A stretch of DNA of 64,000 nt, from assembly GCA_964575335.1 (NCBI GenBank), contig CAZNPU010000010.1:1174-65173 (forward strand), written 5' to 3'. This stretch comes from an uncultured Isosphaeraceae bacterium. Lineage in GTDB: Bacteria > Planctomycetota > Phycisphaerae > Phycisphaerales > SM1A02. Shown here one piece after another: positions 4,070-61,106 of the stretch. Both the position numbers and the translations under genes were made by a program. The notes below the pieces were generated by a model that made no database searches, was not told the origin of the DNA, and saw only the letters and a list, made by a program, of their open reading frames with translations. Positions within the stretch are counted from its first letter, which is position 1. Every line of letters starts with the position of its first letter.

Positions 4070-4609
4070 GTGATCATGTCGGAAACTTGCCTGTCAGTTC
4101 CTCCCTTTCGCATCGGCCACGGCTACGACCTGCATCGCCTGGAACCGCGCCCGCCGCAGGGAAACGGTCGCGTGCTGGTGCTGGGCGGCGTTCGGTTTGA
4201 GGATCACGCGATGGGGCCGATCAGCCACAGCGATGGCGATGCGGTCTATCACGCTGTCACCGATGCGGTGCTCGGAGCGCTGGGGCTACCGGACATCGGC
4301 CAGCTCTTTCCCGATACCGATCCCCAATATGACGCGATGGACTCGTCGGTTTTTCTTCGCGAAGCGGCCAATCGCATGAAAGCTCATGGCTACGTGCTGG
4401 GCAATCTCGATGTCACCGTGATCTGCGAGCGGCCGAAGCTCGCAGCCCACAAGCACGCCATGATCGAGAACCTCGCTCAACTGCTGGAATGCGATCGCAG
4501 CCAGGTGAATCTCAAGGGCAAGACGCACGAAAAGGTGGACGCGGTCGGCGAAGGCCGTGCGGTGGAAACCCATGCCGTCGCGCTGCTGGTGAAGCGATCG
4601 GATAAGTGA
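4070..4609 (+). CDS. ispF: 2-C-methyl-D-erythritol 2,4-cyclodiphosphate synthase
   Basis: FRIGHGYDLHRL...GHSDGDAVYHAVTDAVLGALGLPDIGQLFPDTDPQY... are canonical IspF motifs. The start may be the ATG at 4076. Confidence 0.95.
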   Translation: MIMSETCLSVPPFRIGHGYDLHRLEPRPPQGNGRVLVLGGVRFEDHAMGPISHSDGDAVYHAVTDAVLGALGLPDIGQLFPDTDPQYDAMDSSVFLREAANRMKAHGYVLGNLDVTVICERPKLAAHKHAMIENLAQLLECDRSQVNLKGKTHEKVDAVGEGRAVETHAVALLVKRSDK

Positions 4610-4739
4610 ATAGTGAGCGCATTTCTTGTTGCTGCATCGCGTAGCGGGGTGCGATCGCGTTGCGATTCTGGGACTGGCGTTGTCGGCAGATGTTGGTCAA
4701 TTGAAAAAGAGAGCGCTTGAACGAGTTACACTCTGACCT

Positions 4740-5261
4740 ATGGCTCAATTCACTTATCTCTGGCAGGCTGCTGCAGCGTTGGCGGCTCGGGCACATCGGT
4801 CGCAGCTTCGCAAGGACAGGGAAACGCCGTATATCGCTCATCCGATGCGCGTTGCGCTGACGGTGGCGAACGTGTTTGGCGTGACGGATGACGTTACGCT
4901 TGCTGCGGCGCTCCTGCACGACACCATTGAGGACACCGATATCGATTACGACGACATTGCTGAAGCATGCAATCGCGAAGTGGCGGACATTGTTGCAGCG
5001 CTGACCAAAGACGCGCGCATGGACGAGCCGCAGCGCGAACAGGCGTACGATGAGCAGCTTGCCCGCGGCCCGTGGCAGGCGCGGCTGATCAAGCTTGCTG
5101 ATGTGTACGACAACCTGCAGGACACCTACAGCGACAAATCTACCGCCCGCCAGCTCGACAAAGCCCGCCGCGCGCTGAAACTGGCTGAGGGCGATGATCG
5201 CCTTGCTGCAGCACGGGAAATCGTGGCGAAAGTCGTTGATGCGCTCACGCCAGCCGGCTGA
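4740..5261 (+). CDS. HD-domain-only RelA/SpoT-homologue hydrolase (small alarmone hydrolase-like)
   Basis: YIAHPMRVALTVANVFGVTDDVTLAAALLHDTIEDTDIDYDDIAEACNREVADIVAALTKD matches the SpoT/Mesh1 HD (H...HD...ED) hydrolase signature. At 173 aa there is no synthetase domain. Confidence 0.75.
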   Translation: MAQFTYLWQAAAALAARAHRSQLRKDRETPYIAHPMRVALTVANVFGVTDDVTLAAALLHDTIEDTDIDYDDIAEACNREVADIVAALTKDARMDEPQREQAYDEQLARGPWQARLIKLADVYDNLQDTYSDKSTARQLDKARRALKLAEGDDRLAAAREIVAKVVDALTPAG

Positions 5262-5417
5262 GAGCGGGAAGTGTTCGGTCACGATCACCGCAGCGATGAG
5301 GCGGTACGCCCGATTATCGAAACCGCACTCTGTCGGAACATCCCGCCCGCGATTGTGTCCTACCATCGGTGGTTGGTTCGCTTGCTTGCCGCCTGTTCAT
5401 TGGCTTTGGAAAACGCC

Positions 5418-6338
5418 ATGATGATGATGCTTGTACATATGTTTTCTGCTTTGCTGATACTGGCCGCCTGGCCGCTTCAAACGAACCTGCACGCAGCGAC
5501 GTTGCCGCTGCTTGCGATGGACGAAGCTGAAGCTGCAGCCCAGCCGCCTGCCGCGACGCAGCCTGACAGCGCTGTTGAGCAGAAGCAGCCAGAGGAGAAT
5601 CAGCAGCCGCAGCAGTCTGTCGCAGCCGATCCGGTGTATGACCTGCTGGGCCGGCTTGAGCGCAGCGCCAAGGACCTTCATGCGTTTACCGCGAAGATCG
5701 CATTCGAGAAGGAGGACGGTCTCGTCGGGCGAACCGAGCTGCGCACCGGCGAACTGATCTACCGTCTCGATCAGGACACGCAGGAAAAGAGCTTCGCGAT
5801 CCTGCTGGATGCGGTGATCATCAACAATGTTCGTCGACCGAGCGAGAAGAATTACATCTTCAACGGCCGGTGGCTGGTGGAAGTGGATCCGAGTCAGCGG
5901 CAGTTCATCAAGCGTGAGGTTGTGCCGCCGGGTCAGCAGCTTGATCCGCTGAAGCTTGGCGAAGGTCCGTTCCCATTACCGATCGGTCAACCCAGAGATG
6001 AGGTACTGGCGCGGTTTGATGTTTCGCCTGCAACATTGCCTGCAACCGGCATGCTGCAGCATCTTGAAAATGTCGAGGGTCTGCTGCTGGTGCCCAAGCC
6101 GGGCACGCAGGAAGCCCGCGAATATGAGCGTGTTGAGCTGTTTTATGATCGCGACACGCTGCTGCCGGTGGGAATCAACGCCGTTGAGGTGCGAGGCAAT
6201 CGCCAGACGGTGCGTTTGAGCGATATCAAGCGCAATCCCGCGCTCGACGAAGCGACTCTCGCCAAACTCGACATTCGTGAACCCGATCCGCGAGAATGGC
6301 GCATCGACGTGCGGCCGTGGCAGGCTCCGCAGGAGTGA
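5418..6338 (+). CDS. Secreted hypothetical protein, possibly LolA-like fold
   Basis: The ATG at 5418 gives MMMMLVHMFSALLILAAWPLQTNLHAA (signal peptide), then a Q/P/E-rich linker and a beta-rich domain. The LolA-like assignment is a weak pattern impression. The CDS itself looks real. Confidence 0.45.
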   Translation: MMMMLVHMFSALLILAAWPLQTNLHAATLPLLAMDEAEAAAQPPAATQPDSAVEQKQPEENQQPQQSVAADPVYDLLGRLERSAKDLHAFTAKIAFEKEDGLVGRTELRTGELIYRLDQDTQEKSFAILLDAVIINNVRRPSEKNYIFNGRWLVEVDPSQRQFIKREVVPPGQQLDPLKLGEGPFPLPIGQPRDEVLARFDVSPATLPATGMLQHLENVEGLLLVPKPGTQEAREYERVELFYDRDTLLPVGINAVEVRGNRQTVRLSDIKRNPALDEATLAKLDIREPDPREWRIDVRPWQAPQE

Positions 6339-7361: not shown

Positions 7362-8852
7362 TTACTGCAGTCGCAGCGAGCCGAGAACCTGTCGGCCATG
7401 CGGGTCGATCATCATGGTGCGAACGCCGCCGGGAACAGCAAGGTTGTAGTCACGCAGGACGTTGATGAACTCTTCCACGTTGCGTACAGGCTTATCCATC
7501 ACCTCAACGATGACCGTGCCCGGCTCGATGCGTCGGGCGAAAAAGGTGTTGGGCGTCGTCTCCAGAATCATCACGCCGGGCGTGAACGTCTGTGCGCCAT
7601 GTTGCTGAGCCAGTTCGGGGGTATTGGTCGCCATGCGCTTGATGCCGATCTGCGGGATTCCCTCATGGCTTTGGCTGGGCGGTATGCGGCCGGTTGCAGC
7701 GAGCATGTCAAGCTCGTCCAGCATGATCTCCAGCTCGACGATGCCGCCGCTTTTTTGCTCGTGATCGTAACGCCAGATGCGCAGCACCACCGTCTCGCCC
7801 GGCAAGATTGACGAGATGGTGGAGCGCAACTGTTCGCGTGACGCCACCGGCCGATCGCCCACGTGCGTGATGATGTCGCCTATGCGCATGCCGCTGCGGG
7901 CAGCAGGGCCGTCCGGCGGGACCATCGCAGCAAGCACGCCGCTGCCGATGTAGCCCAGTTCGCGTGCGATCTCTGCGGTCAGCTCCTCCGGCAACACGCC
8001 CAGGTATCCCTTGGTCACATACCCGTTCTCAATCAGTTGCGTCACGACCGGCCGGATCATGTCGATCGGAATCGCCAGGCCGATGCCTGCAAACTGGCCT
8101 TCTTCAAATGAATGCCGCGATCGTCCCGTGGCAATGGCGGTGTTCATGCCGATGACGTGTCCGCGATGATCGGTCAGCGGCCCGCCGGAGTTGCCCGGAT
8201 TGATCGCTGCATCAACCTGAATGAAATTTTCGTACCCGGTGCGGTTGCCCAGTTCGTCGCGAATGACGCCGACTGACCGGCCCTTGCCCGAGACGACCCC
8301 CGAAGACATGGAAAAGCGAAAGTCAAACGGCGATCCGAACGCAAAGACCATATCGCCCTGCTTCACCGTCGCGTCGGTTTCCGCGATCGTCGCCGGGTGC
8401 AGCCGTTCGGGATCCACTTTGATCACCGCAATATCGGTGGTGAAATCCGAGCCGACCATCACCGCGTCGCGCAGCTCGCCGTTATACATCTGCACCTGAA
8501 TGCGCACAGCGTTTTGCACCACATGGTGATTGGTCACAATGTGGCCCTGATCGTCATACACCCATCCCGAGCCGGTTGAAAGCCCCATGCGCTGATTGCC
8601 CAGGGCGTCAAGTTCGGTGTAATGAGCGCTGACATGCACAACGCTTGGTTCAACGAGCGTAGCGATATCGCGGTAGGCCTCGTTGAGGCGAGCGAGAATG
8701 TCGTTGTTGTCGAGGTTGTGCCGGGCCTGAACGATTCGAGCGCGGGTCTGCTCATAGGTGAGTTGCTTGACCGCCTGAGGTCCGGCCAGCAAAACGACAG
8801 CGGCTGTGACGAGCACGATCAGACTAGGCCCATAACCGCTGAGCTTGCGCAT
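7362..8852 (-). CDS. htrA: HtrA/DegP-family periplasmic serine endoprotease with PDZ domains
   Basis: N-terminal TM/signal segment, catalytic triad contexts TNHHVV, DIAVIKV and GNSGGPL, then PDZ-like segments. An SD (GAAGGAAGG) lies upstream of the ATG at 8852. Confidence 0.9.
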   Translation of the reverse strand: MRKLSGYGPSLIVLVTAAVVLLAGPQAVKQLTYEQTRARIVQARHNLDNNDILARLNEAYRDIATLVEPSVVHVSAHYTELDALGNQRMGLSTGSGWVYDDQGHIVTNHHVVQNAVRIQVQMYNGELRDAVMVGSDFTTDIAVIKVDPERLHPATIAETDATVKQGDMVFAFGSPFDFRFSMSSGVVSGKGRSVGVIRDELGNRTGYENFIQVDAAINPGNSGGPLTDHRGHVIGMNTAIATGRSRHSFEEGQFAGIGLAIPIDMIRPVVTQLIENGYVTKGYLGVLPEELTAEIARELGYIGSGVLAAMVPPDGPAARSGMRIGDIITHVGDRPVASREQLRSTISSILPGETVVLRIWRYDHEQKSGGIVELEIMLDELDMLAATGRIPPSQSHEGIPQIGIKRMATNTPELAQQHGAQTFTPGVMILETTPNTFFARRIEPGTVIVEVMDKPVRNVEEFINVLRDYNLAVPGGVRTMMIDPHGRQVLGSLRLQ

Positions 8853-39082: not shown

Positions 39083-39284
39083 TGTGAAACTGGGTTGGGT
39101 CGGGTGCACCCCGGAAATTGACGGGTTGGCTGATCGCTGCATGTGCGATGGAGCGAGGCATTTCAATTTTTGGTTTCCAGCGCAAGAAAAAGCTCCATCG
39201 AGCATATCAGGATAACAGACAGAGGCGATCAAGGCAATTTTGCCATACAGGCTCAATTCGCACATTGTGCGGGAGGCAAGATCG

Positions 39285-42200
39285 ATGATGATGAACCAGA
39301 CAGCAGTTTCAGCAGCGGTTGCCGTTTGCGCGCAATGGGCGGCAAATCGTGCAGCGGGCGTGGCGGCGGCGGTCATGATGCTTATTGCGGCAGCCGGTGC
39401 GGTTCACGCTGAAACCATTCATGTTCCCAAGGACTATGCCACGATCCAGGCTGCGATTGATGCGGCCATGCCCGGCGATGAAATCGTTATCGCGCCGGGA
39501 ACCTACAACGAGGCGATTGATCTTCTGGGCAAGCCGATTGCGCTGATCGGCAGCGGCGGTGCGGAACAGACAATCATTGACGGCAGGGGCCTTGATTCAA
39601 CCGTCGTCACGATTGTGAATGTGCCTCAGCCCGGCGCACGACTGGAAGACCTCACCATCACCGGCGTCAACAACACATTAATAATATTTACCGGCAGCGT
39701 TTATGTCTCGAGCAGTGTCGTCAAACTGACGAGGTGTATTGTTCGAGAGAATGTGGCGGCCTATGGAACGGCTGGCATTCGAGTCGGCGCTGGCAGTGAC
39801 ATTGAAATGCGCTACTGCATTGTGGAGGGGAATACGAGTATAAATGGCTACGGTGGAATGACTTCAAGTAACTCGAACGTGCTGATCGATGCATGTGAAT
39901 TTCGAGCGAATGTTGCTTCCATAGAGCACCAGCATAGTGTGGTGTTTCTGGCCGCCTATAACGGTGAATCTGTGTATGTGAATGACACACTTTTTGAAAG
40001 CAATGCTGGCATCACGACGATTGAGGTGTACGGAGGCACTGAATCCAATCCGATTCGCTTTGAAGCGTGCACCATTCGGGGAAATCGAGGGATGCAAGGC
40101 GTCGGCATGTATGTTTCCGGCAACGCATATACCGACATCATTGCCTGTCAATTCGAAGACAATTGGTCTGATAGTGGGCCGCCGGTTTATCAGTCCGGCG
40201 CAGGAATAGCTGTCAGATCGTCCTCTACACCAGGATTGCTGCGGATCGAAGACTGTGAGTTCAGGAACAATCGTGCAGCCAGCGGCGCTGCGGTGATTGT
40301 CTTTGGAAATATCGTGAAGTTTTCCAACTGTCTCTTTGAAGATAATGTAAGCGACCCTGGCATAGGCGCAGCAATCACTGTTACAGGTTCGAATAATGCC
40401 TATGCTGCATTCTCACATTGCCGCTTCGAAGGCAATCACTCGCAGCGAGGCGGCGCTGCGGCTGGATATCGCGGCACACTTGAATTTCAGCAGTGCGAAT
40501 TCATCGATAATACCGCTGAGTTCAATGGCGGTGCGATATATGGTTATGGCCAATCAAATATCCATGCAGATCAGTGCATTTTCGAGAGCAATCAGAGTCT
40601 GCAGGGCGGTGCGCTTTACTTCACCGACCAGTCATCGGCGACATTGACTGCATGCAGTTTTGTGAACAACGGCGCTGCAGCACAGGGAGGCGCAGCGTAT
40701 CACCACAGTGATGCCGGTACGCTGGCGTATGACAATTGCTCATTCATCGACAATGAAGCCGGAAGTGATGGCGGTGCAGTGGCCAGCACGAGCACTCAGG
40801 CTGCCTTCGAGCATTGCAATTTCAGCGGCAACACAGCAGTCGTCGGCGGTGGGATGGCGAACGGATTCAATGCTGCTGCCACGCTTGTGAATTGCAAATT
40901 CATCGACAATCTGGCTGATCTGGGCGGCGGACTTGCCAACGAGTTCGGCGGCGTGGCGACGCTTGTCGACTGCACGTTCGAGAGCAATGCTGCGATTTAC
41001 GGTGGCGGCATCTACAACGACTTTGCTGACATCGATATTGATCAGTGCGCGTTCCGGTTCAACGTTGCGGATGGAGGCTATGGAAGCGCGATCGGCAAGC
41101 AGTCCGGTACGATATCGATCGGCAATTCGCAATTCTGCGGCAACCTGCCGCCCGGCACGCAAATTACGGGCAGTTATGACGATGTCGGCGGCAATATGCT
41201 GATGGGTTATTGCACGCGGCCGCTGGTGATCCATGTTCCGAATGACCTGTCCAGCATTCAGCAGGCTGTGTTGGAGGTTGCTGACGGCGGCGAGGTCATC
41301 GTCGGTCCTGGGGTATATAATGTTCCCATTGCAATCCCCGCACGTGGAATTACGCTGCGCAGCTCACACGGGCCGGCGATGACGGTTCTCAACGGCGGAG
41401 GGTTTGAAGACAGCATCATCACCTGTGCTGAAGCGTCGCGTTCAGACAGGGGTACGCCAGCCGTGACGCGGATCGAGGGATTCACATTCATCAATGGCAA
41501 AGGCAAGCCAAACCCTTTGGCTACTGATGGAGGAGCGATCTTTGCGCTTTCAGACCTTGAGGTTGCTGATTGCGTCTTTCAATTCAATACAGCGACCAGT
41601 GAAGGGGGAGCGATCGATTCGCATGCGAACCTCAAGGTCATTAACTGCATGTTTGAACACAATGCAGCATCTCATAGAGGTGGAGCAATCTATTCGCATG
41701 CGAATCTCGAAGTCATCGATTGTGTGCTTGGACACAATACAGCGTCCGGTGAAGGTGGAGCGATCTACTCGCAGGCAAACCTCGAAGTCGTCAATTGTGT
41801 GTTTGAACGCAACACGGGTGGCTTCGGTGGCGGCGCCATCAGGCTGCATGAAGCAGCGGGTGCGCTTACGGTGAAGGAAACCACTTTTATGCTGAACGAA
41901 GCGTCTACCGGAGGCGCGATTCACGGCGGCAACAATGATATGGAAATAACCGTGACGGATTGCGTATTCACTGAAAACAGCGCCGCAAACGCTGGCGCGT
42001 TGTACATCTCCGGAGGTACGGTTGAGCGATGTGAATTCATTGCGAACACCACTGAATCTGCAGGCGGAGCTATTCGGGCGACCGTCGGACTGGGGTCGTT
42101 TCTGACGTTGAATGATTGTGTGTTGTCAGGAAATACGGCAGGCGATCGAGGCGGCGCGATCTCCTTCCTGGTTCTTAACCCGCAGGTGAGCGTGAACAAC

Positions 42201-42647
42201 TGTACGTTCAATGAAAATCATGCCGATGAAGGCGGCGCTATATATACAACTTCATTCTACGATGGCGCTGTGACGATCACGGGATCGAAGTTCAAGAACA
42301 ACACAGCCGACACGCAGGGCGGAGCGATCTATGTGTATCCCACGGGGAATGAATCAGATGCCGTCGTCGCCGACACGCTGTTCTGCGGCAATTTGCCGGA
42401 ACATATCGCTGGCCTGTGGCTCGATAACGGCGGCAATGAATTTCACGATGCCTGCTCGGTGAGTGCGGACATCACCGGCGACGGGTTGGTGAATATCGAT
42501 GATCTGCTTGCGGTGATTGCGAGTTGGGGGCCATGCCCCGCAATGCCTGACGAATGTCCAGCCGACATCGCACCGGTATCAACCAATGGCGATGGCATGG
42601 TGAACGTGGACGACCTGCTTGCGGTCCTCGCCAATTGGGGTGGGTAA
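39285..42647 (+). CDS. Large secreted right-handed beta-helix protein with Pmp-like FxxN/GGA(I/L/V) repeats and a C-terminal dockerin-like repeat pair
   Basis: The ATG at 39285 has GGGAGG 8 nt upstream, and a signal-like N-terminus follows. Two cap motifs occur (IHVPKDYATIQAAIDAAMPGDEIVIAPGTYNE and IHVPNDLSSIQQAVLEVADGGEVIVGPGVYNV). More than 20 F-x-x-N...GGA(I/L/V) rungs are present. The end has DITGDGLVNIDDLLAVIASWG and STNGDGMVNVDDLLAVLANWG. Confidence 0.8.
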   Translation: MMMNQTAVSAAVAVCAQWAANRAAGVAAAVMMLIAAAGAVHAETIHVPKDYATIQAAIDAAMPGDEIVIAPGTYNEAIDLLGKPIALIGSGGAEQTIIDGRGLDSTVVTIVNVPQPGARLEDLTITGVNNTLIIFTGSVYVSSSVVKLTRCIVRENVAAYGTAGIRVGAGSDIEMRYCIVEGNTSINGYGGMTSSNSNVLIDACEFRANVASIEHQHSVVFLAAYNGESVYVNDTLFESNAGITTIEVYGGTESNPIRFEACTIRGNRGMQGVGMYVSGNAYTDIIACQFEDNWSDSGPPVYQSGAGIAVRSSSTPGLLRIEDCEFRNNRAASGAAVIVFGNIVKFSNCLFEDNVSDPGIGAAITVTGSNNAYAAFSHCRFEGNHSQRGGAAAGYRGTLEFQQCEFIDNTAEFNGGAIYGYGQSNIHADQCIFESNQSLQGGALYFTDQSSATLTACSFVNNGAAAQGGAAYHHSDAGTLAYDNCSFIDNEAGSDGGAVASTSTQAAFEHCNFSGNTAVVGGGMANGFNAAATLVNCKFIDNLADLGGGLANEFGGVATLVDCTFESNAAIYGGGIYNDFADIDIDQCAFRFNVADGGYGSAIGKQSGTISIGNSQFCGNLPPGTQITGSYDDVGGNMLMGYCTRPLVIHVPNDLSSIQQAVLEVADGGEVIVGPGVYNVPIAIPARGITLRSSHGPAMTVLNGGGFEDSIITCAEASRSDRGTPAVTRIEGFTFINGKGKPNPLATDGGAIFALSDLEVADCVFQFNTATSEGGAIDSHANLKVINCMFEHNAASHRGGAIYSHANLEVIDCVLGHNTASGEGGAIYSQANLEVVNCVFERNTGGFGGGAIRLHEAAGALTVKETTFMLNEASTGGAIHGGNNDMEITVTDCVFTENSAANAGALYISGGTVERCEFIANTTESAGGAIRATVGLGSFLTLNDCVLSGNTAGDRGGAISFLVLNPQVSVNNCTFNENHADEGGAIYTTSFYDGAVTITGSKFKNNTADTQGGAIYVYPTGNESDAVVADTLFCGNLPEHIAGLWLDNGGNEFHDACSVSADITGDGLVNIDDLLAVIASWGPCPAMPDECPADIAPVSTNGDGMVNVDDLLAVLANWGG
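41604..41828 (+). repeat. Three consecutive in-frame 75-nt (25-codon) tandem units inside the beta-helix gene
   Basis: The three units are GGAIDSHANLKVINCMFEHNAASHR / GGAIYSHANLEVIDCVLGHNTASGE / GGAIYSQANLEVVNCVFERNTGGFG. They are clearly similar at the nucleotide level over the first ~50 nt of each unit. Confidence 0.7.
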
Positions 42648-50514: not shown

Positions 50515-53500
50515 ATGACCGCTTCATCGGTTGAACCAGTCGCCTCGCAATCGCGCTTGATGGTGCTGCTGTTCACCGATTTAGTCGGCTCAACGCAACT
50601 GAAGGCGGAACTGGGTACGGGCGTCTATGCTGCGCTGGCCGCTAGGCATGATGAAATTTTCCGCCGCATCATCGCTGCATCGCCCGGAGCGGAGATTCTT
50701 AAAGACCTTGGCGACGGGTTTATGGTGCGCTTCGACACTGCCAGCCAGGCGGTTCGGGCGGCGCTGTTGTTTCAATATGCAATCGCGACCGAACCGTGGA
50801 AACCCGTTCCGCTGCACGTGCGCATTGGTCTGCATCTTGGCGAAGTGACCGACCTCGGCGAGGACGTGCTGGGCAAGGTGAAGGTGGTCGGGCTCGCTGC
50901 GGATATGGCGGCTCGGCTGATGAGCCTCGCGCTGCCGAATCAGATTCTGCAGACGCGCGCTGCTTTCGACGAATCCCGCCAGTATCAGCGTGTGCATCCT
51001 CTGGCTGAAGATCACAACGGCATTGGTGCGATGCCGGGAACCTTCACGGCGCCTACATTGCGATGGGTGGCTCACGGACCGTATCTGTTCAAAGGTGTGG
51101 ATGAACCGGTTGAGGTATTTGAGGTGGGGGCTGAAGGCATTGCGCCGCTCACGCCGCCGCCCGATTCTGACAAGGCGCGCCGCGCGGTGCGCATCGATGA
51201 AGAAGAAACGCTCGGCTGGCGACCGGCGATCGGCCTTGATATTCCCAACCGCTCATTCTGGCATCTTGACCGCAAGCTCGGCGAGGGCGGCTTTGGCGAA
51301 GTCTGGCTCGGATCGAACTCCAAGACCCGCGAACGCCGTGTGTTCAAGTTCTGCTTTGATGCGGAGCGATTGCGTTCGTTCCGGCGGGAACTCACGCTGG
51401 TGCGACTGCTGCGGGAAGCTTTGGGCAACCGCGCCGACATCGCGCGGCTGTATGAAGGAAGTGCATCTCGAAAACGCGCCGTACTACCTGGAAAGCGAAT
51501 ACAGCGAGCTTGGCAATCTCACTGAATGGGCTGAAGCGAACGGCGGCATCAGCAATGTTCCCCTGTCGCTTCGGCTGGATATCATTCGCCGTGTGGCCGA
51601 CGCCATTGCCGCTGCGCACGGTGTGGGCGTATTGCACAAAGATATCAAGCCGTCGAACATTCTGATGTATCGCACCGAAGACGGCGACATAAGGCCGCAG
51701 ATCGCGGACTTCGGCATCGGCGTGCTCGCGGACCCCGCGCAGCTCAAAAGCCGCAACATCAGCGTTACAGGGTTTACTGCCACGAGCCTGACGGAGAACT
51801 ATTCCAGCCGTACTGGCACGCGCATGTATGCCCCGCCGGAAGCGATGCTCAATATGCCCTTTACCGTTCAGGGCGATGTGTATGCGCTGGGGGTGATGCT
51901 GTATCAAATGGTCGTGGGTGATCTGAACAGACCTCTTGCGGAAGGATGGGACTGCGACATTGCCGATCCGTTGCTGCGGCAAGACATTGCTGCATGTGTG
52001 CAGGGCGATCCGGCGCGTCGCCTCGGCAGCGCAAGAGAACTGGCTGACCGTCTGCTGCAACTGCCGCAACGGCGCAAGGCGATGCGCTGGCAGCGCATCT
52101 TTCGTGGGAGCGCAGCGGCCGTGGTGGCGCTGTTCATTTTGCTGGTGGCATCGGGTTTGTGGATCATGCGTGAGCAGAAGCTTCGCAGCCACGCTGAGCG
52201 CGAACACAGGCGTGCGCTGGATGCTGAAGCCGTTGCCCTGCAGGAACGCGACAATGCCTTGCGCGCTCACGAAACCGCCCATGCGGTCAGCAATTTTCTC
52301 CAGGACATGCTTGCGTCGGTCGATCCGGCCAAAGCGCAGGGACGCGAAATCACCGTCAGGGAACTGCTCGACAGCGCCGCGAACACCCTCGGCGATGCGC
52401 TGCGCGATCGACCCGATGTGGAAGGCGAAATTCGCCACACCATCGGCCAGACTTATTACACCCTCGGACGATATCCGCAAGCCAAAGAGCAGCTGGCAAT
52501 TGCGCTGGAGCGGCGGCTGCAGACGCATGGCGAAGCGCATGCGGAAACGATCGTTGCGATGGATTCGCTTGGCGTATTGCATCTCATGCTCGGTGAGCTT
52601 GATGAAGCTGAGGCGCTGTTCACCAAAGGGCTTGAACTTGCCCGGAAGACACTTGGGCCGGAAGACCCGCGCACGCTGGCTGCGATGGATCACATGGCCC
52701 TGCTGCTGCAGGATCGCGGACGCTATCTCGAAGCCGAGCAACTGCATCGCGAATCGCTTGAAATCCGCAGAAACGTCCTCGGGCCGGATCATCTCGATAC
52801 GCTGTCGCAGATCGTCTCGCTGGCTGATGTCATGGAAGACACCGGCAAGGCTGAAGAAGCGGTGCGTATGAGCGCAGAAGGCATTGTGCTGGCCAAGCAG
52901 TCGCTCGGGCCGACGCATCCGATCACGTTCAGTTTGATGAGCATCAATGCCTCAGGGCTGTATCAGCTTGGCCGATATGAAGAATCAGAGCGGATTTCGC
53001 GTGAGGTGATCGGTGGGCGTATCCGGGTCCTGGGCGAAGCCCATCCGCAAACGCTGGTGTCACGCAACGCATTAGCCTTGACGCTGGAACAGATGGGCCG
53101 GCACGATGAGGCGGCTGCGGAGTTGCGCCAGATTGTCGAACTTGCAGAGCAGACGCTGCCTCCGGGTCACGATTCGATCCTTACGTACATGGGCAACCTG
53201 GCGCGAAGCGAACATTTGCGCGGCAACCTGGATGAAGCAGAGCGTCTGATGCGGCACGTGCTGGAAGTTCATCGGCACATGCACGGCGAAGACGCGCAGA
53301 GCACGCTGTTTGACATCAACAATCTGGCGCGGCTTCTGCTCGATCGCCACAAGCCTCAGGATGCGCTGCCGCTTTTTGAGCAGGTCGTCGCGGGTATGGA
53401 TCGATCCTTGCCCGACGGGCATTGGATCCGCGCCGCTGCGCGGGTCAATCTTGGCGAATGCCTGCGGCTGCTTGAGCGGTATGACGAAGCGCTATCGATG

Positions 53501-53665
53501 CTGAATGCCGGCTACGCGGGGCTGCAGACGTCGCTTGGAGCGCAGCATAACCGCACCCGGAACGCTGCAGCATTGCTGGCCGATCTGTATCAGGCAATGG
53601 GGCGGGATGCTGATGCGCAGCAGTGGCGCGCAAAAGCCCAGCCCATGGATAAGGATGCGAGCTAA
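50515..53665 (+). pseudogene. Class III cyclase-homology domain + Hanks Ser/Thr kinase + TM + TPR protein, split by a +1 frameshift at about 51454-51461
   Basis: ORF 50515..51525 carries the cyclase motifs (LLFTDLVGST, KDLGDGFMVRF, RIGLHLGEV) and the kinase N-lobe (GEGGFGEVW, RVFKF). ORF 50990..53665, one frame over, continues with EVHLENAPYYLESEY, HKDIKPSNIL, IADFGIG and TRMYAPPE. A TM helix and multiple TPR units follow. Confidence 0.7.
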
Positions 53666-53992: not shown

Positions 53993-56572
53993 ATGCAGCA
54001 ATCAAACGTCATCAATGCCATCGGCCGCACGCATCTGCGCTTTCACTGGCTTGCAGTAGTGCTGGTGTTGCTGCTGGGAATCAACGCCCCGGCCCACGCC
54101 CAGGGCACCATGGGCGCGGTGCCTGATCCCATCTCCACGCGCGAATTGGCTGGCTACATGAACCGGCTGCGCCTCAGCGATCATCAGCGCGTTGCGGTTG
54201 ATCACCTGCATGCCATATACCGCGAAGAGTTTCGACTTTTGCGCGAAACCGACATTGAGAAGTTCATCAATGAAAGCGCCGATCTGATGCGCGGGGGCAT
54301 GGGCGCGATCATGAACGTGAATCGCGAAGAAGTGAAAAAGAGCCTAAACCAGCTGGACAATCTCCTTAGCCGGATTCGCGCTCTCGATGATGGCTTCTTC
54401 GATCAGCTTCAGTCCATACTCACCGATGAACAAATGCAGATCATGCCTCGCGTCCGCCAGACCCGCGAACGCGTTCGCTATCAAAGCGGCATGGGGCGAA
54501 TGGTGAGCTTTCTCAATCCCGCAAGCCAGGTTGAACTGACCGAGTTCGTTGATGAGTTGGACCTCTCGCCTCAGGAGTTCGAGCAGGTTGATCTGCTCAT
54601 GGCTCAGTATGAAGCCTCGCTCACCGCTGCAGCCCGGCGGCTGCACAACAGCGGCAGCACGTTCATTCTTGATTTTCTCGATGCGATGCAGGCGCTCGGC
54701 GTTTCCGAAGAGGCGATGCGCGACAGGCAGCGCCGAGCAGCGATGTTCGATGGCATCCGCCAGGCATGGCAAGACATCTCGAGCAAGCTGCATGACCAGA
54801 GCAAGGTGATGAGTTCGCTAAACCGGCGGACGCTTCGGTCGCTTGAGCAGGTGCTGTCGCCTGTAGATGCTGCCCGGCTGCGCGATCGCTTTTTCCGCAG
54901 CGCGTACCCTGACGCAGCATATACCGGCCCGGTGCTGAACGCGTACGAGCTTGCGATGAAACTGGATCAGCTTACCGATGAGCAGCGTCAGGCAGTGGCA
55001 TCCATGGCGACCGAACTGCGCACCACGCTCAATCGCATCGCCGATCAACTGGCGGATCTGATTGACGAAAACCCGCGTGGCCGCATGATGCTTGCCGGCG
55101 ACGACGCCCGCCAGCAATACGAAGACAAGATGCGTCGTCTTCGCGATCAGCGCACCGCAGTTGTTGAGAATGCTGCGCGAGTGCTCAAGGATCTGCTGGG
55201 GCCGGAACTGAACGAGCAGCTTGAAAAGCGAGTCACACTTGCAGAAGAATCCGATCAGCAACTTGAAGTCGTCAGCGTACAGGTAATGGGCGGCGGCGGT
55301 GCGGCTGTTGTGGCTACGCGGACTTCCGTCTGGCAAACTGGAGACGATATCGATATCGATCCATTTCTGCCCCAGCCGATCAGTTCAACCGACATTGATG
55401 AATACGCTTCGCGCCTGGGCGTCAGCGATGATGTGCGCACAATCATGGCTGGACTGCACAGCGAATATCAGGAGAAGTTTCGGCTGCTGGAAACCGAAGG
55501 CGCGATCAAGGCGGTTCGCGAAGCAGAACGCCGCCATCATGCGATGAACTCACAGACCGGCGAGATTCTGCCGCCTGCGCCGGAACAGGTCGATTCACTG
55601 TACGCGCTTCGCCGCCAGGCTCTGACTGCTGTTGAGCAACTAGATGCGCAGTTTTTTACTGACCTTGCTTTGATTCTTTCTGGTGAGGATGCTGAAAGCA
55701 AAGTCAACCGGCTTCGCCTGGCGCGGCAACGGGCAATGTATAGCCGCAATACAGACAGCAACATCAACATTGGCTTCGGCGGGCCGCGTCAGGCCCAGCG
55801 CGGCGGGCGCATATTCGCAGGCGGGTTCGGCGAATCGAACGAGGCTGCTGTCGATGTCGCCTTGCTGGTTGAAAACCTTGATCTGACGCCCACTGAACCG
55901 GAAGCGTTTCATGCTGCATTGCACGATTACGAGCAGGCGGCCACAACCGCGTACCGTGAACTTTTTGAAGCGAACATGCGCATGCGTCAGTCAATGGAAA
56001 AACTGATGGCGCGGGCACGCATTGAAACGCGAGGTGATCGGGAGCGCACCGGGCAATTCCAGTTCAACAACATGCGCAGCGTTATGCAGAATGAAGGCCA
56101 GGCGGCACGCGAAATGCGCCGGAAAGTTGCCAGCCTCAATCGCGACACGCTGACCAGACTGACGGCGCTTCTGCCGCCGGAAAACGCCGATGCGCTTCGG
56201 CAGGCGTATAACCGCAAGGCGTATCCCGAGGTGTACCGCGACCCCCGTTCAGCGCAGCCGCACCTCTCCGCAGCGTTGATGCTTTCCGATCTGGCCGATC
56301 AGCAACTGAGCCAGATTCAGGAGTTGGCTCTCGAATTCCGCTCAAAGTATGACGAGCTGACCGATCAACTGGTGCAACTTCTGGCGACAAACCATGAGCC
56401 GCCCAACTTTGCCGACGCCTCGTTCCGCGATTGGATTCGTGAGCGAGAACGCCTCGAATTCGATCGCAATGAGCTTTCCGATCGCACGATCGCCCGATTA
56501 AGCACAATTCTTACGGAGGATCAGGTGCAACGGCTGGGCGGACTGAGCCTGGAGCGAACTTCGCAGCAATAA
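53993..56572 (+). CDS. Secreted helical repeat protein, LTxxQ-rich, paralog 1 (unknown function)
   Basis: The ATG has AAGGAAA upstream. The signal peptide is ...WLAVVLVLLLGINAPAHA|QG. At 859 aa it is collinear with the next gene and internally duplicated. Confidence 0.75.
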   Translation: MQQSNVINAIGRTHLRFHWLAVVLVLLLGINAPAHAQGTMGAVPDPISTRELAGYMNRLRLSDHQRVAVDHLHAIYREEFRLLRETDIEKFINESADLMRGGMGAIMNVNREEVKKSLNQLDNLLSRIRALDDGFFDQLQSILTDEQMQIMPRVRQTRERVRYQSGMGRMVSFLNPASQVELTEFVDELDLSPQEFEQVDLLMAQYEASLTAAARRLHNSGSTFILDFLDAMQALGVSEEAMRDRQRRAAMFDGIRQAWQDISSKLHDQSKVMSSLNRRTLRSLEQVLSPVDAARLRDRFFRSAYPDAAYTGPVLNAYELAMKLDQLTDEQRQAVASMATELRTTLNRIADQLADLIDENPRGRMMLAGDDARQQYEDKMRRLRDQRTAVVENAARVLKDLLGPELNEQLEKRVTLAEESDQQLEVVSVQVMGGGGAAVVATRTSVWQTGDDIDIDPFLPQPISSTDIDEYASRLGVSDDVRTIMAGLHSEYQEKFRLLETEGAIKAVREAERRHHAMNSQTGEILPPAPEQVDSLYALRRQALTAVEQLDAQFFTDLALILSGEDAESKVNRLRLARQRAMYSRNTDSNINIGFGGPRQAQRGGRIFAGGFGESNEAAVDVALLVENLDLTPTEPEAFHAALHDYEQAATTAYRELFEANMRMRQSMEKLMARARIETRGDRERTGQFQFNNMRSVMQNEGQAAREMRRKVASLNRDTLTRLTALLPPENADALRQAYNRKAYPEVYRDPRSAQPHLSAALMLSDLADQQLSQIQELALEFRSKYDELTDQLVQLLATNHEPPNFADASFRDWIRERERLEFDRNELSDRTIARLSTILTEDQVQRLGGLSLERTSQQ

Positions 56573-56806
56573 AAATAACGGTGAACGCCGTTCAAAGAGT
56601 GGCGTGCAGCGCCGGGGCGAGTACGGCAGAGTTATTGATGCACAGCTTCTGCGAACGACTTTTTCGCAGCACAGCCCTGCGTCATGCAAGGCAGCGGTGC
56701 AGATTCCCTATTAGAATCTGTAACAACGCATTGCCTTGACTGGCAGGCGGAAGCCTCGTGCGCCATGATGCGCTGCAGCAATCATCAATAGTGCAGGAGT
56801 CGATTC

Positions 56807-59371
56807 ATGATCAGCGTCCACTCATGCGAACCCCTCTCGCGCCGTGTTCTGCATGTGCTTGTGCTTATTGCTGTCTCACTTGCTGTCTTGGCAATGGCTG
56901 CTCCAGCCGCAGCGCAAGGCACGATGGGGCTGCTGCCCGATCCTATCACCACGCGTGAGCTGGAAGATTTTGCCATGCGATTGCGCCTGAGTTCTCAACA
57001 GCGCAAGGCTGTCGAAGACCTGCACGATCAATACAAGCGCGAATTCCGCGAGCTGCGCGAAACTGAGATTGCCGACTTCATGAAGAGCATGATGAGCATG
57101 CAGGGCGGGATGCCGGCGCGGCAGGCGGTTGAAGAAATGATCGATCGCATGACGAAAATACGCAAGCAGATCGAGTTGGTTGACAGCCGCTTGTTCGATC
57201 GGATGCAGCCGATACTTACCGACGAGCAACTGGTCATGTTGCCGCGCGTGCGGCTGGTTCGTGAGCGGACGCGTCTGGCAAGTCAGCAGATGATGTGGAT
57301 GGGTGGGGGAGCGCCGCCCGATCTGAGCGCGATGGTATTTGAGCTTGACCTCACCCCCGAGCAGATGCAGGCGATCGATCCGACACTGGCGGGATATGAA
57401 AGTCGTCTCACCGCCACGATGGCCAAGATGCAGGACGCCTCCAGCAAAATGTTCCTGGCGATGATAGACGCCATGGAAAGCGCCGGCATTACCCAGGAGA
57501 CAGTGGAAGATCCCGATCCCGAGGTTGCCGCCAAGGTGGAAGAAGCGATGCAGCAGATTTTCGAAAGCGTCACCACTGAAATAATGATGTTGAGCAGCGA
57601 CCTTGCCCAGGAGAATCGCCGCACCTGCCGCAGCTTGATGTCGATGCTCCCGCAGGAACAGGGGCGCTCACTTCGCGATGCGCTGTACCGCCGCGCATAT
57701 GTGGAAGCGAGATTTGCGCTCCCGAATGACACGATGTTTCCTGCTGCGCTGAAACTTGACGATCTCACCGACGAGCAGCGCGACATGCTGCGGGCAGCGC
57801 AGCAGCAGTTCTACAGCAGCATGGATCAACTACTCGAGCGGATAGTTGATTATCTGGATGAGTTCAACCGGAGCGGATCGCCTTTTGATTTCGCCCGCGA
57901 ACATTGGGAGGAGAAGAATAAAAAGCTAGAGGAATCCAGAGCGAGGGCAACCGAGATTCGCGCCGCAGCGGTGCAGGATGTGACCAACATTCTGGGCGCT
58001 GAACTTACAAAGAAAATCCAACCCCACATCGCTGCGATGCAATCAGGGGCCCCCGACGTAATGGCTGAAGTTCTTGCCGATGCGATGGAAGCGGACCACG
58101 CTGCTGCGGGCGAAGGGGCGGCAACGGACGAACCTGGTGACGGCGGCGCGATTGCGATTGAAGAAAGCCAAGCGATGGTGTGGAGCGGTAACCAATGGCT
58201 TCCGCCTCAGATCAGCCATCAAGATCTCAACGAGTATGCTGCCATCCTCAAGTTAAGCGAGGAGCATTACGCGGTGCTGCAGCATCTTTATAAAAGTTAT
58301 GTTGAGGCATTCGGACGCATCAGGTCCACTGAAATTGCAGCGGCGTCCAATGCCGCTCAATCAATGTGGCAATGGGATGAAGCGACTGGTCAGCTTCGCG
58401 TGCCGGCCGGAGAAACTGCCGAGCAACTTTACCGGCTTCGGCAACAGGCCATGCAGGCGATATGCGATGCCGACGAGGCGTTCTTCAATGACGTGGAGAT
58501 CACGTTGGTCTCGGAAGCGCAGGCACAGCAGATGATGCGTGTGCGGATGATGCGCGAGCGTGCGCGTTGTCGTCAAGGCAGCAACATGAGGCAATGGTTC
58601 AGTCCTCGATCAGCCGAGGCTACAGTCGATCTGATGCAGATGATTCGTCGGCTGCGATTGTCGGAAGACACCTTGCAGAAGATCGACAGCCAATTGTATC
58701 GGTATGAAGTTGCTGTCACACCGCTGTTGCGCAAGTACTACGAATCTGCGCTGCGGGTTCAGCAGGCACAGGACCACTGGAACATTGAAATCAATCGCAA
58801 CGCGGAGGAGGGCGTCGCGACCAGCGCTGCTCGATACCGCGAACTGTTCGAGGAACCTTCCAAGCGGGCAAGCGAGATCAGTCGCGAACTGGCGCGCATC
58901 AATCGCGAAACCCTTGAGCAGATACTTGAAGCGATCAACTCCGATGCAGCGTTTGAACTTCGCGCCGCCTACAACCGCGAAGCGTTCCCCACTGTGTACA
59001 ACGATCCCGTGTGCATTGATCGTCATCTGAACGAAGCACGCAAGCTCTCAGACCTCACCGACGATCAGCAGCGCATGCTGGATGAACTTGCTGTGGAGTA
59101 TCACCCCGCCTACCGCGACTTTTGCGAGCAGATGATCAAAATTCATGCAGAGACGGAGGAATACGCCTACTGGTACATGTCGATGGAAGACGATCCTGAT
59201 CAGCAACGCCGCTGGATGGAGCGCATGGAAGCCATCGCCAAGCTGAATTTCGATCGCAGCGAACTCAATGCCCGCGCTGTCAGCCGCTTGAAGTCGATTC
59301 TCACCGAAGAGCAGATCAAGCGCATCGGCGGCCTGCCGGAGTTGCCGGAAAACACGTTCAATATGTGGTGA
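56807..59371 (+). CDS. Secreted helical repeat protein, LTxxQ-rich, paralog 2 (unknown function)
   Basis: The ATG has AGGAG 8 nt upstream. The signal peptide is ...VLVLIAVSLAVLAMAAPAAA|QG. At 854 aa it is collinear with the preceding gene. Confidence 0.75.
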   Translation: MISVHSCEPLSRRVLHVLVLIAVSLAVLAMAAPAAAQGTMGLLPDPITTRELEDFAMRLRLSSQQRKAVEDLHDQYKREFRELRETEIADFMKSMMSMQGGMPARQAVEEMIDRMTKIRKQIELVDSRLFDRMQPILTDEQLVMLPRVRLVRERTRLASQQMMWMGGGAPPDLSAMVFELDLTPEQMQAIDPTLAGYESRLTATMAKMQDASSKMFLAMIDAMESAGITQETVEDPDPEVAAKVEEAMQQIFESVTTEIMMLSSDLAQENRRTCRSLMSMLPQEQGRSLRDALYRRAYVEARFALPNDTMFPAALKLDDLTDEQRDMLRAAQQQFYSSMDQLLERIVDYLDEFNRSGSPFDFAREHWEEKNKKLEESRARATEIRAAAVQDVTNILGAELTKKIQPHIAAMQSGAPDVMAEVLADAMEADHAAAGEGAATDEPGDGGAIAIEESQAMVWSGNQWLPPQISHQDLNEYAAILKLSEEHYAVLQHLYKSYVEAFGRIRSTEIAAASNAAQSMWQWDEATGQLRVPAGETAEQLYRLRQQAMQAICDADEAFFNDVEITLVSEAQAQQMMRVRMMRERARCRQGSNMRQWFSPRSAEATVDLMQMIRRLRLSEDTLQKIDSQLYRYEVAVTPLLRKYYESALRVQQAQDHWNIEINRNAEEGVATSAARYRELFEEPSKRASEISRELARINRETLEQILEAINSDAAFELRAAYNREAFPTVYNDPVCIDRHLNEARKLSDLTDDQQRMLDELAVEYHPAYRDFCEQMIKIHAETEEYAYWYMSMEDDPDQQRRWMERMEAIAKLNFDRSELNARAVSRLKSILTEEQIKRIGGLPELPENTFNMW

Positions 59372-60125
59372 GCAATGCGTTCGCGTTGCGGCGATGCCCG
59401 GCTGACGGCTGTTTCTGGCTCACCAGCGTGAAGCGATACAGCAGGTGACTGCGGTAGGTTACGTGCGGCAGATCGGCCCTGCGGGCCAGATCCAGCGCCT
59501 CGCGGCGGGTAAAGCCGCCATCAACGCTCACCAGCGCATCGTGCTGAACGATGTGAGGAGCGCCGATCGTGAGCAGTCGCACGCCGAGTTTTGCGATTCG
59601 GCTGCGCACCAGATCGTTCCAGATCATGCCCTGCGCACTCAGGCGGTTCATGATTTGCAGCACGGTCAGCACTTCGATGTCCTGCAGGTGATGCAAAAAC
59701 ATCCCCGCATGCGCATAGTCGAATTGATGCGGCTCGAATCGATCCATCAGACGAAGCGCATCATGCTGCACCAGCTCAATGTCGCTGCGCTCGCCGATGT
59801 ATTGCCGCGCCAACTGCAGGGTGGCGGCGTGCAGGTCAACAGCGGTGATTTTGACCCGGTGACCGCGTGCACGAGCCCATGTGGCGATGGCGAGAGGAAT
59901 ATCCGCAGAGCCGGTTCCGATGTCGAGAATGGTGATGGTGCGATCTTTGGGCCAGTTGCGTGACCAGCGTTGAAGCTGCCGCAACGCTGCTGCCGTACCG
60001 CCGAGCCTGCGATTCACCATGCGGATGAACTTCAGCGACACAGCAAGATCGTTGTGGTCGACCTGCGGGTCGTCCATCAGTTCCGGCGTGATCCGGCGTT
60101 GCGTGAGATAGGCCATCGGATTCAT
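59358..60125 (-). CDS. Class I SAM-dependent methyltransferase
   Basis: The ATG at 60125 gives MNPMAYLTQRRITPELMDDP... Motif I is ILDIGTGSADIP, followed by ITAVDL. Confidence 0.8.
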   Translation of the reverse strand: MNPMAYLTQRRITPELMDDPQVDHNDLAVSLKFIRMVNRRLGGTAAALRQLQRWSRNWPKDRTITILDIGTGSADIPLAIATWARARGHRVKITAVDLHAATLQLARQYIGERSDIELVQHDALRLMDRFEPHQFDYAHAGMFLHHLQDIEVLTVLQIMNRLSAQGMIWNDLVRSRIAKLGVRLLTIGAPHIVQHDALVSVDGGFTRREALDLARRADLPHVTYRSHLLYRFTLVSQKQPSAGHRRNANALLTTY

Positions 60126-60185
60126 CGTATTCCAGCAGCATGCCGATCGCTGCCCCAGACCGCGCCGCTCCGCTACACTATTTGC

Positions 60186-61106
60186 ATGTCTACGATCGCA
60201 CGAGAAGTTCCTGCTCACGCACAGAGCAGCGCAGATGCCGCCTCAGCAGCGCCGGTGACCGCAATGCCAATCACCAAGCCCGTCACATTGCGAACCATCG
60301 CCAAGTGGGTCGCAAGCAGCGAGAAATTCGCCTGCCTGACCTGCTATGACGCCACGACCGCGCGCTGGCTGCAGCAAGCCGGCGTGCCTGTGCTGCTGGT
60401 AGGCGACACCGCAGCGGAGATGATTCTGGGGTTGCCCGGCACGATTCATGCGCCACTGGATTTTCTGATCACGCTCACTGCAGCAGTCAAGCGAGGCGCG
60501 CCCAATTGCTTCGTCATCGGTGATATGCCTTTTATGAGCTATCAGACTGACGATGCGGAAGGCATTCGCAACGCAGGCCGTTTCATGACCGAAGGCTTTG
60601 CCGACGCGGTAAAGCTTGAAGTCGATGCGAGCTTTGCGCCGCTGGTGCGCAAGATGAGCCGCGCCGGCGTGCCGGTCGTGGCGCATATCGGTTCGCGTCC
60701 GCAGCAATCGAAAATGCGCGGCGGATACAGTTCAGTCGGCCGATCCGCTGATGAGGCTCGCAGCATGGTTGATGACGCATTGGCAATGCAGGATGCCGGC
60801 GCATCGATGCTGCTGATCGAAGCATGCCCCAACGAAGTTTCACAGCGCATCGTGGAAAAGACGTCAGCTTCCATTCCGCTGATCGGCTGCGGCGGCGGCG
60901 CAGCATGCCACGGACAGATCGTGGTGCTGCAGGATCTGCTCGGCCTGACCAACTGGCAGCCGGCGTTCGCCCAGCCGGTGATTCATCTTGGCCAGCACCT
61001 CACGCAGGCGGCCCAGCAGTGGATCACTAACGTGAAAACTTCCAACCTCGGCGAGCATCCTTATACGATGTCCGAAGAAGAACGGCAGCGCTTTGATGCG
61101 CCGTGA
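60186..61106 (+). CDS. panB: 3-methyl-2-oxobutanoate hydroxymethyltransferase
   Basis: The ATG at 60186 gives MSTIAREV... Signatures are LTCYDATTARWLQQAGVPVLLVGDTAAEMILG...GDMPFMSYQ...VKLE...AHIG. Confidence 0.95.
   Translation: MSTIAREVPAHAQSSADAASAAPVTAMPITKPVTLRTIAKWVASSEKFACLTCYDATTARWLQQAGVPVLLVGDTAAEMILGLPGTIHAPLDFLITLTAAVKRGAPNCFVIGDMPFMSYQTDDAEGIRNAGRFMTEGFADAVKLEVDASFAPLVRKMSRAGVPVVAHIGSRPQQSKMRGGYSSVGRSADEARSMVDDALAMQDAGASMLLIEACPNEVSQRIVEKTSASIPLIGCGGGAACHGQIVVLQDLLGLTNWQPAFAQPVIHLGQHLTQAAQQWITNVKTSNLGEHPYTMSEEERQRFDAP

Follow-up and report, generated by a model that had tools for sequence, protein, structure and literature searches.

Two adjacent genes of a planctomycetal genome encode what is almost certainly an ancient pair of paralogous, Sec-exported proteins, each composed of six fused units of the LTXXQ type (the domain of the small periplasmic proteins Spy, CpxP and ZraP). 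The genes, hereafter A and B, lie in a stretch of 64,000 nucleotides (hereafter the window) from an uncultured Isosphaeraceae bacterium placed by GTDB in the Phycisphaerales (assembly GCA_964575335.1, contig CAZNPU010000010.1, forward-strand positions 1,174 to 65,173). A previous inspection of the letters and their open reading frames (ORFs), here called the sequence-only reading, had singled out two neighbouring ORFs on the same strand, whose coordinates and lengths (859 and 854 amino acids, aa) we recovered exactly (Table 1). The mature products have a mass of about 94 kDa and a pI of about 5; A is devoid of Cys, and B is rich in Met (6.0%, within a family range of 1.6-6%).

Paralogy and internal duplication

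By BLASTP, A and B are collinear over 848 columns (32% identity, E=7e-118), in agreement with their previous designation as collinear paralogues, and the impression that about half of the residues match over the first ~130 aa fits the 43% identity found between the first units (U1) of the two proteins. The sequence-only reading had furthermore proposed that each protein is internally duplicated and that the locus holds four copies of a ~400-aa module. On splitting the mature proteins at their central Gly-rich region and comparing the halves by composition-corrected BLASTP, the N-terminal half matched the C-terminal one both in A (E=1.5e-25, 28% identity over 349 aa) and in B (E=1.0e-15), by which both proposals hold, with the refinement that each module comprises three LTXXQ-type units. 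As the matches between the two N-terminal halves of A and B (E=4.6e-70) and between their two C-terminal halves (E=2.8e-51) are stronger than either N-C match, the internal duplication is older than the duplication of the gene. Moreover, A has 5 and B has 6 occurrences of the motif L[TS]xxQ, where 2000 residue shuffles predict 0.8 (P=0.0015) and 0.5 (P<0.0005), an enrichment of 6- to 12-fold.

Six-unit architecture

Unit profiles built from a 26-sequence family alignment, and compared by hhalign, showed that no new fold underlies the ~400-aa module, which consists of three divergent LTXXQ-type four-helix units; the proteins follow the plan (U1-U2-U3)x2, with 12 units per locus (borders in A numbering, Table 1). 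The module duplication was recovered as U1~U4 (99.8% probability), U2~U5 (99.5%) and U3~U6 (98.9%), and matches across non-equivalent units extended over nearly the full unit length (U1~U3 95.8%, U1~U6 96.0%, U1~U2 90.3%, U2~U3 92.9%, U2~U6 92.3%). Since reversed profiles reached at most 11.8% and column shuffles (20 per pair) at most 2.8%, helical or compositional bias is ruled out as the source of these matches.

The AlphaFold2 (AF2) model of full-length A is all-helical (predicted local distance difference test, pLDDT, 78.2; predicted template modelling score, pTM, 0.70), in line with the long helices anticipated from composition, and its disorder is limited to the signal peptide, aa 420-454, a Gly-rich loop after U4 (aa 589-613) and the last five residues. 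The same helix pattern (a short helix, a helix of ~30-45 residues, a turn, a long helix and a terminal helix, the last missing from U3) is repeated six times. In the model, a unit is read as a short helix, an L-x-L-[ST]-x-x-Q cap, a long helix, a turn, a second long helix, an L-[ST]-x-x-Q cap and a terminal helix. Mapping of the motifs on the model placed 12 sites in each protein, two per unit, and every one caps the N-terminus of a predicted alpha2 or alpha4 helix. The canonical form is found at five of them (U1a, U1b, U3a, U6a and U6b), with Leu kept in 26/26 sequences at all five and Gln in 26/26 at four (20/26 at U3a), and a degenerate form (L-[STPG]-x-x-[EDQ]) at the other seven. The five anchors previously noticed in both halves of both proteins are real, and correspond to the helix-cap sites U1a, U1b, U2a, U2b (together with its AYP) and U3a and to their equivalents in U4-U6.

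Apart from the motif caps, the family conserves several Tyr, Asp and Asn positions and the arginine ladders that follow the second motif of U1 and U4 (in U1 of A, R155/158/160/162 stand right after it). Histidine is scarce (0.3-2%): H73 is the sole invariant one in ~850 residues, H489 is kept in 77% of the sequences, and no Cys or Met is conserved. The inter-module linker differs in length among homologues. The U1 hairpin tip (A aa ~96-105) and the U4-U5 loop (589-613) carry lineage-variable Gly-rich insertions in the homologues P0007, P0009, P0012 and others (an example of such a loop or linker insertion being GGTGGGRGGQGGPGGGRGGRGGQ); hairpin-tip loops and linkers are low-complexity expansion hotspots in an otherwise constrained helical framework.

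Table 1. Features of the A-B locus (positions are those of the window; a slash marks the predicted signal peptide cleavage site)
Feature	Residues	Position	Strand	Remarks
Gene A, six-unit LTXXQ-array protein (A-type, upstream paralogue)		53993..56572	+	ORF, 859 aa
A, signal peptide	1-36	53993..54100	+	...NAPAHA/QGTMG; hydropathy, A-x-A site; low pLDDT aa 1-35
A, unit U1	44-170	54122..54502	+	Canonical LTXXQ unit; motifs LRLSDHQ (59-65), ILTDEQ (142-147)
A, unit U2	171-305	54503..54907	+	Degenerate; motifs LDLSPQE, VLSPVD; ends in AYP
A, unit U3	306-420	54908..55252	+	Motifs QLTDEQ (canonical), LLGPEL
A, inter-module Gly/Ala-rich flexible linker	421-457	55253..55363	+	pLDDT <50 over aa 420-454
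A, unit U4	458-600	55364..55792	+	U1 duplicate; starts DPFLPQPIS; Arg ladder R573/578/580
A, unit U5	612-745	55826..56227	+	U2 duplicate; faint PF13801 Metal_resist match
A, unit U6	746-855	56228..56557	+	Canonical LTXXQ unit; motifs DLADQQ, ILTEDQ
A-B intergenic spacer		56573..56806	+	234 bp; AGGAG 6 nt before B ATG
Gene B, six-unit LTXXQ-array protein (B-type, downstream paralogue)		56807..59371	+	ORF, 854 aa
B, signal peptide	1-36	56807..56914	+	...AAPAAA/QGTMG; hydropathy maximum 2.7 at aa 14-32; A-x-A site
B, N module	U1 44-164, U2 165-298, U3 299-414	56936..58048	+	Mapped from A via family alignment
B, C module	U4 464-597, U5 599-728, U6 729-847	58196..59347	+	Mapped from A via family alignment

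Membership in the LTXXQ superfamily

The units of A and B are divergent members of the LTXXQ superfamily and not close relatives of Spy. With the proteins scanned both whole and as ~130-aa pieces against PF07813 (gathering cutoff 24.3 bits), whole B (25.8 bits) and its U6 (29.0 bits, E=1.8e-6) scored above the cutoff and U1 of A just under it (21.9 bits, E=3e-4, profile positions 6-89 of 100), followed by U1 of B (19.3 bits), U6 of A (15.1 bits) and U3 of B (11.5 bits); other pieces gave faint matches to PF13801 (Metal_resist, E 0.03-0.7). When the units of orthologues were scanned singly against Pfam (E<=0.01), PF07813 was matched independently by 14 of 21 U1 (best 2.9e-6) and 14 of 23 U6 (best 1.1e-6), and no competing family was matched by more than two members in these scans. 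Against PDB sequences, the best match of the U1 profile was the LTxxQ-family protein STV (Salmonella Typhimurium VirG-like protein, 5ihf; E=0.014). Profile positions 13-107 pair with residues 19-109 of its 116-residue chain, and the two motifs coincide, as does the His that comes after the first of them; ZraP (3lay) was also among the matches. The U6 profile returned from the PDB spurious short matches only (a lysozyme repeat and ribosomal protein L29).

The structural comparison pointed in a similar direction. U1 modelled on its own reached a pLDDT of 90.8 and a pTM of 0.80, and the top 16 Foldseek matches of this model in the PDB were all STV or CnrX (probability 0.89-0.99, target-normalised TM 0.58-0.67, root-mean-square deviation mostly 3.5-5.3 A over about 107-116 columns), so that at the level of the predicted fold the units look nearer to STV/CnrX than to Spy. 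The whole proteins found no characterised or solved match in searches of Pfam, NCBIfam, PDB sequences and Foldseek (in which the best match of the 859-aa model, at E=0.23, was among generic helical repeats and bundles only). Taken together, the kinship with LTXXQ proteins that the sequence-only reading had read from the recurring motif is borne out, as is its statement that the full-length proteins fall outside any characterised family; the signal peptides and the plentiful homologues described below accord with it as well.

Export and the mature N-terminus

Judged by hand and from hydropathy, both N-termini have the classical make-up that had been claimed for them (a basic n-region, a hydrophobic h-region and an A-x-A/QG cleavage site), and no second strongly hydrophobic segment was found in A or B by hydropathy; both are predicted to be exported by Sec to the periplasm. 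The n-region of B contains the stretch S-R-R-V-L-H-V (aa 10-16, window 56807-56860), which resembles a twin-arginine translocation (Tat) motif; Tat export was considered and rejected on the grounds that A has no twin arginine and that the Arg pair is inconsistent among the orthologues inspected, and Sec was assumed.

Immediately after the cleavage site, QGTxGxxPDPI (aa 37-47; window 54101-54133 and 56915-56947) is the most conserved stretch of the family, with Q37, G38, P44 and P46 invariant in 26/26 sequences, and the module-start motif recurs at U4 as DPFLPxPIS. The Gln at the mature N-terminus could cyclise to pyroglutamate, and the stretch as a whole might be a sorting or docking signal.

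Distribution, evolution and selection

A word-indexed search returned, at full length, 25 homologues for A and 15 for B, with organism names exclusively from Phycisphaerales and Planctomycetota metagenome-assembled genomes (MAGs). In an exhaustive hidden Markov model (HMM) search with the family profile, 2,859 clusters (50% identity) reached E<=1e-3, of which 751 also passed E<=1e-30. Nearly all of the best 150 are complete proteins (800-930 aa), and those that fall short are fragments cut off at one end. In GTDB, a single narrow peptide pattern, which under-samples taxonomic breadth, recovered six reference genomes, all of them (6/6) Planctomycetota MAGs. The proteins thus form a large uncharacterised family, widespread in metagenomes, whose source-named members are all Planctomycetota MAGs, mostly of Phycisphaerales. 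Exact public copies of A were present on 57 contigs and those of B (P0030) on 83. A search with the U6 profile for free-standing single units found only contig-end C-terminal fragments of the long proteins and no intermediate architectures; JGI annotates some of these fragments as 'Spy/CpxP family protein refolding chaperone', and the label is otherwise 'hypothetical protein'.

The A-B pair is present in five loci (the window, L001, L004, L005 and L006), and a single A-like copy in L002/L003, L007, L008 and L010. Upstream genes score mutually at 461-551 bits and downstream ones at 412-488, as compared to 261-383 for A-B cross comparisons; since upstream copies cluster with upstream and downstream with downstream ones, the pair is ancient and its order conserved. 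Both genes are under purifying selection: in comparison to a 93%-identical orthologous locus (L017), A has a ratio of nonsynonymous to synonymous substitution rates (dN/dS) of 0.17 and B one of 0.25, and within A it amounts to 0.10-0.19 in the units and 0.34, the highest value of the mature protein, in the inter-module linker. Across loci the proteins are 30-40% identical, versus 50-74% for their neighbours.

Gene neighbourhood

At the class level, the genes belong to a syntenic block of the order ThiF, (DinB), one or two A/B-type genes, a methyltransferase on the minus strand, PanB and an HtrA-like protease. In the window, the pair is preceded by RibBA, an M42 peptidase, DinB and a gene with adenylate/guanylate cyclase, Ser/Thr kinase and tetratricopeptide repeat (TPR) parts, and followed by the methyltransferase, PanB and a carboxyltransferase. 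An HtrA/DegP-like protease is found two to three genes downstream, directly after PanB, in four related loci (L001, L002, L007 and L010). Its homologue in the window (7362-8852, minus strand; 58% identical to the one of L001) lies 45 kb from the pair, a position that indicates a rearrangement of the otherwise conserved block. Neither in the window nor in nine related loci was a two-component system, an extracytoplasmic function (ECF) sigma factor or a metal-resistance gene adjacent to the A/B-type genes.

The A-B spacer is 85% identical to its counterpart in L017, and spacers measure about 110-430 bp in the window and related loci; a scan of its plus strand for consensus promoters and terminators found none and was uninformative. 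The 3' end of B overlaps the convergent methyltransferase ORF (59358-60218, minus strand) by 14 bp (59358-59371), an overlap likewise called in L014-L016, which leaves no space for a terminator between both genes.

Three further observations concern the surroundings of the pair. A 4-bp tandem duplication (GAAG to GAAGGAAG) at 51454-51457 breaks the frame of the cyclase/kinase/TPR gene (50515-53665, plus strand), which is read as two overlapping ORFs. Contigs from two other samples (L014 and L015) carry an unbroken allele of 1,048 aa, and a third sample (L016) has the split form. An assembly error seems less likely than a polymorphism of the population or slippage that switches the gene on and off. 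In one locus only (L001), a methionine sulfoxide reductase gene with MsrB/MsrA domains (4325-5505) lies ~1.5 kb upstream of the pair, and the nine remaining sequences of the comparison, among them the window, showed no homologue; the gene is of note because Met oxidation inactivates Spy (PMC12503329). Finally, the 1,135-aa product of ORF 39240-42647 (plus strand) of the window, in which Chlamydia polymorphic membrane protein repeats (PF02415, E=2e-36) abound, is probably a surface or autotransporter-like adhesin.

Comparison with characterised relatives

The top match of U1 by both profile and structure is STV (5ihf/5io8; probability 0.99, 19-23% identity), which is a single unit of ~116 aa; its own function is not established, and it thus gives no information on the mechanism of A and B. 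Together with STV, the closest solved fold to the U1 model is CnrX (2y39, 3epv), the periplasmic Ni/Co sensor of Cupriavidus metallidurans, with a sequence identity to U1 of 14%. CnrX is anchored in the membrane, carries a His/Glu/Met metal site and exerts control over an ECF sigma pathway, whereas A and B possess no anchor, conserved ligand set or ECF genes. CnrX and CpxP are related in fold; in our literature search we found no paper linking the two.

Among the three E. coli proteins compared, ZraP, a Zn-dependent chaperone of the periplasm that modulates ZraSR, gave the best direct profile match. It differs in being short (141 aa), in its His/Gly-rich metal-binding termini and in adjoining zraSR, whereas the A/B family has neither a conserved His-rich motif nor an adjacent sensor; its crystal entry (3lay) holds ten chains, and by analogy a covalent 6-unit array, or a 12-unit assembly of A and B, could mimic the ZraP oligomer. 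CpxP, the inhibitor or adaptor of the Cpx response to envelope stress, shares with A and B the LTXXQ family and the periplasmic location; it is degraded by DegP, and a DegP/HtrA-type protease is located near the A/B-type genes in several related loci. CpxP is however a single unit of 166 aa that functions as a dimer and is encoded divergently from cpxRA, in contrast to A and B, which have no adjacent two-component system and score at most 10% with it in hhalign. Spy, as A and B, is Sec-exported, all-helical and matched by PF07813, with two LTxxQ motifs flanking a long hairpin and basic residues after the second one; it differs as a single 161-aa unit that forms a non-covalent cradle dimer (PMC4791398), as compared to six fused units in a protein of ~94 kDa, and no Bae/Cpx-type regulator lies near A and B.

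Putative function

The characterised relatives of the domain are all soluble proteins of the periplasm whose partners are other proteins, namely unfolded clients (for Spy, CpxP and ZraP) or sensor domains (for CpxP, ZraP and CnrX). By analogy with these relatives, we tentatively favour over its rivals, though at somewhat less than even odds, a function of the six-unit LTXXQ arrays as ATP-independent client binders of the periplasm; the account as a whole, architecture included, we consider modestly probable. Under this proposal, the exported arrays would bind unfolded or exposed envelope proteins without ATP, as a holdase-type chaperone or adaptor, on the surfaces of the helical hairpins, through hydrophobic patches and the conserved arginine ladders, in the manner described for Spy. 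The covalent concatenation of six units would stand in for the non-covalent oligomerisation of the small family members, and in genomes that carry both, A and B would probably act together or on different sets of clients. Spy itself carries two LTxxQ motifs, and its cradle-shaped dimer binds clients independently of ATP by way of a hydrophobic core with basic edges (PMC4791398, PMC12503329). The conservation pattern of the A/B family (motif caps, Tyr, Asp and Asn positions and arginine ladders, with a single invariant His and no conserved Cys or Met) argues against a metal site of the CnrX/ZraP type and fits a protein-binding surface. Furthermore, the recurring HtrA neighbour is compatible with a role in quality control, and may merely be inherited synteny.

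Several points weigh against this proposal. Protein A remains below the gathering cutoff of PF07813, the Foldseek E-values of U1 are marginal (0.06-0.6), and Spy and CpxP are outside the top 50 fold matches of the U1 model, the nearest of which (STV and CnrX) are not established chaperones. Direct hhalign comparisons to the E. coli proteins are weak (U3-ZraP 54%, U6-Spy 26%, U6-CpxP 10%), the U6-Spy alignment being in register across both motifs (10-104 vs 45-139). Moreover, A and B are acidic overall, whereas the client-binding surface of Spy is described with basic edges. As for the genomic context, unrelated cytoplasmic genes stand between the HtrA neighbour and the A/B-type genes (in the window, the HtrA homologue lies 45 kb away), so that this synteny may simply reflect common descent, and with spacers of the length given above A and B need not be co-transcribed. 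Lastly, the chaperone or adaptor role would be transferred to the family from its relatives.

Of the alternatives, the one that survives best, though we regard it as unlikely, is a periplasmic scaffold or spacer, in which the arrays would help to build the enlarged periplasm or the envelope of planctomycetes, as a flexible helical tether or meshwork for instance, and the LTXXQ hairpin would be a mere building block with no chaperoning activity. Large all-helical proteins with flexible Gly-rich linkers suit such a function, as do the housekeeping-type neighbourhood (ThiF, PanB, ThyA and ribosomal proteins, and not a stress island), a copy number of one to two per locus throughout the clade, the generic helical repeats and bundles returned by the whole-protein fold search, and an evolution faster than that of the neighbouring genes, which is common for scaffolds. 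Against a scaffold, neither a membrane anchor, a lipobox nor a peptidoglycan-binding or outer-membrane-binding domain was found by Pfam or hydropathy; the conserved arginine ladders and the His and Tyr positions suggest specific binding surfaces instead, and the characterised relatives of the domain are all soluble binding or sensing proteins.

Less probable again is an accessory role in signalling, after the fashion of CpxP, ZraP and CnrX, by which the arrays would attach to the periplasmic part of a membrane sensor and modulate it under envelope stress, the candidate in the window being the upstream cyclase/Ser-Thr kinase/TPR protein. CpxP and CnrX do modulate signalling systems, ZraP is annotated in E. 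coli as 'signaling pathway modulator ZraP', CnrX is among the nearest fold matches, and the large sensor kinase gene of the window lies directly upstream of A. This neighbour is however not conserved, its place upstream being taken in related loci by ThiF, DinB or heme oxygenase, and it is frameshifted in the window, where A and B are intact; on these grounds we rejected a functional link to it. Besides, none of the loci examined has a two-component, ECF sigma or anti-sigma gene next to the A/B-type genes.

A sensor or buffer of metals, in which Zn, Ni, Co or Cu would be taken up by the units and the array as a whole would be a metal sponge of high capacity, we hold to be very improbable. It draws on the faint PF13801 'Heavy-metal resistance' matches of several units (and of 2 of the 23 U6 orthologues), on the presence of CnrX and ZraP among the structural and profile matches, on the Met-richness of B and on the abundance of Asp and Glu in both proteins. 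The idea was rejected for want of a conserved ligand set (with H73 as the only invariant His, and a Met-richness that is not family-wide). The proteins have no membrane anchor and no adjacent ECF/anti-sigma or zraSR partner; efflux and resistance genes are absent nearby in the window and related loci. That A and B are spurious ORFs or a decaying duplicated pseudogene pair has practically no chance, as nothing speaks for it other than that long spurious ORFs are generally frequent in GC-rich (59% GC) DNA, against which stand the thousands of homologues, the dN/dS values, the confident AF2 models and the independent assembly of identical proteins on 57 and 83 contigs.

A bolder version of the client-binding proposal, to which we accord a small chance, is that the six-unit arrays, and in genomes that carry the pair a 12-unit A:B hetero-complex, form a closed or cradle-like super-assembly that acts as a principal ATP-independent periplasmic chaperone of Phycisphaerae. 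If true, the super-assembly would be the covalent counterpart of the Spy dimer or the ZraP decamer, and would represent a new class of 'polychaperone' machine arisen by domain concatenation, possibly partnered with the syntenic HtrA protease.

Significance

The LTXXQ proteins Spy, CpxP and ZraP serve as models of how chaperones work without ATP and of envelope-stress signalling, and to our knowledge all characterised members are single small units that act by oligomerising. The domain is known, and what is new is its six-unit fusion, the strict conservation of this fusion and the ancient A/B pair; our literature search turned up no account of LTXXQ proteins with several units, nor of this planctomycetal family. 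A six-fold fusion conserved over thousands of clusters constitutes a natural experiment in what valency and covalent linkage do to client binding, and a large set of 'hypothetical proteins' gains a domain-level annotation. Moreover, the family points to an unexplored side of envelope proteostasis or architecture in the Planctomycetota, whose periplasm is unusual and poorly understood.

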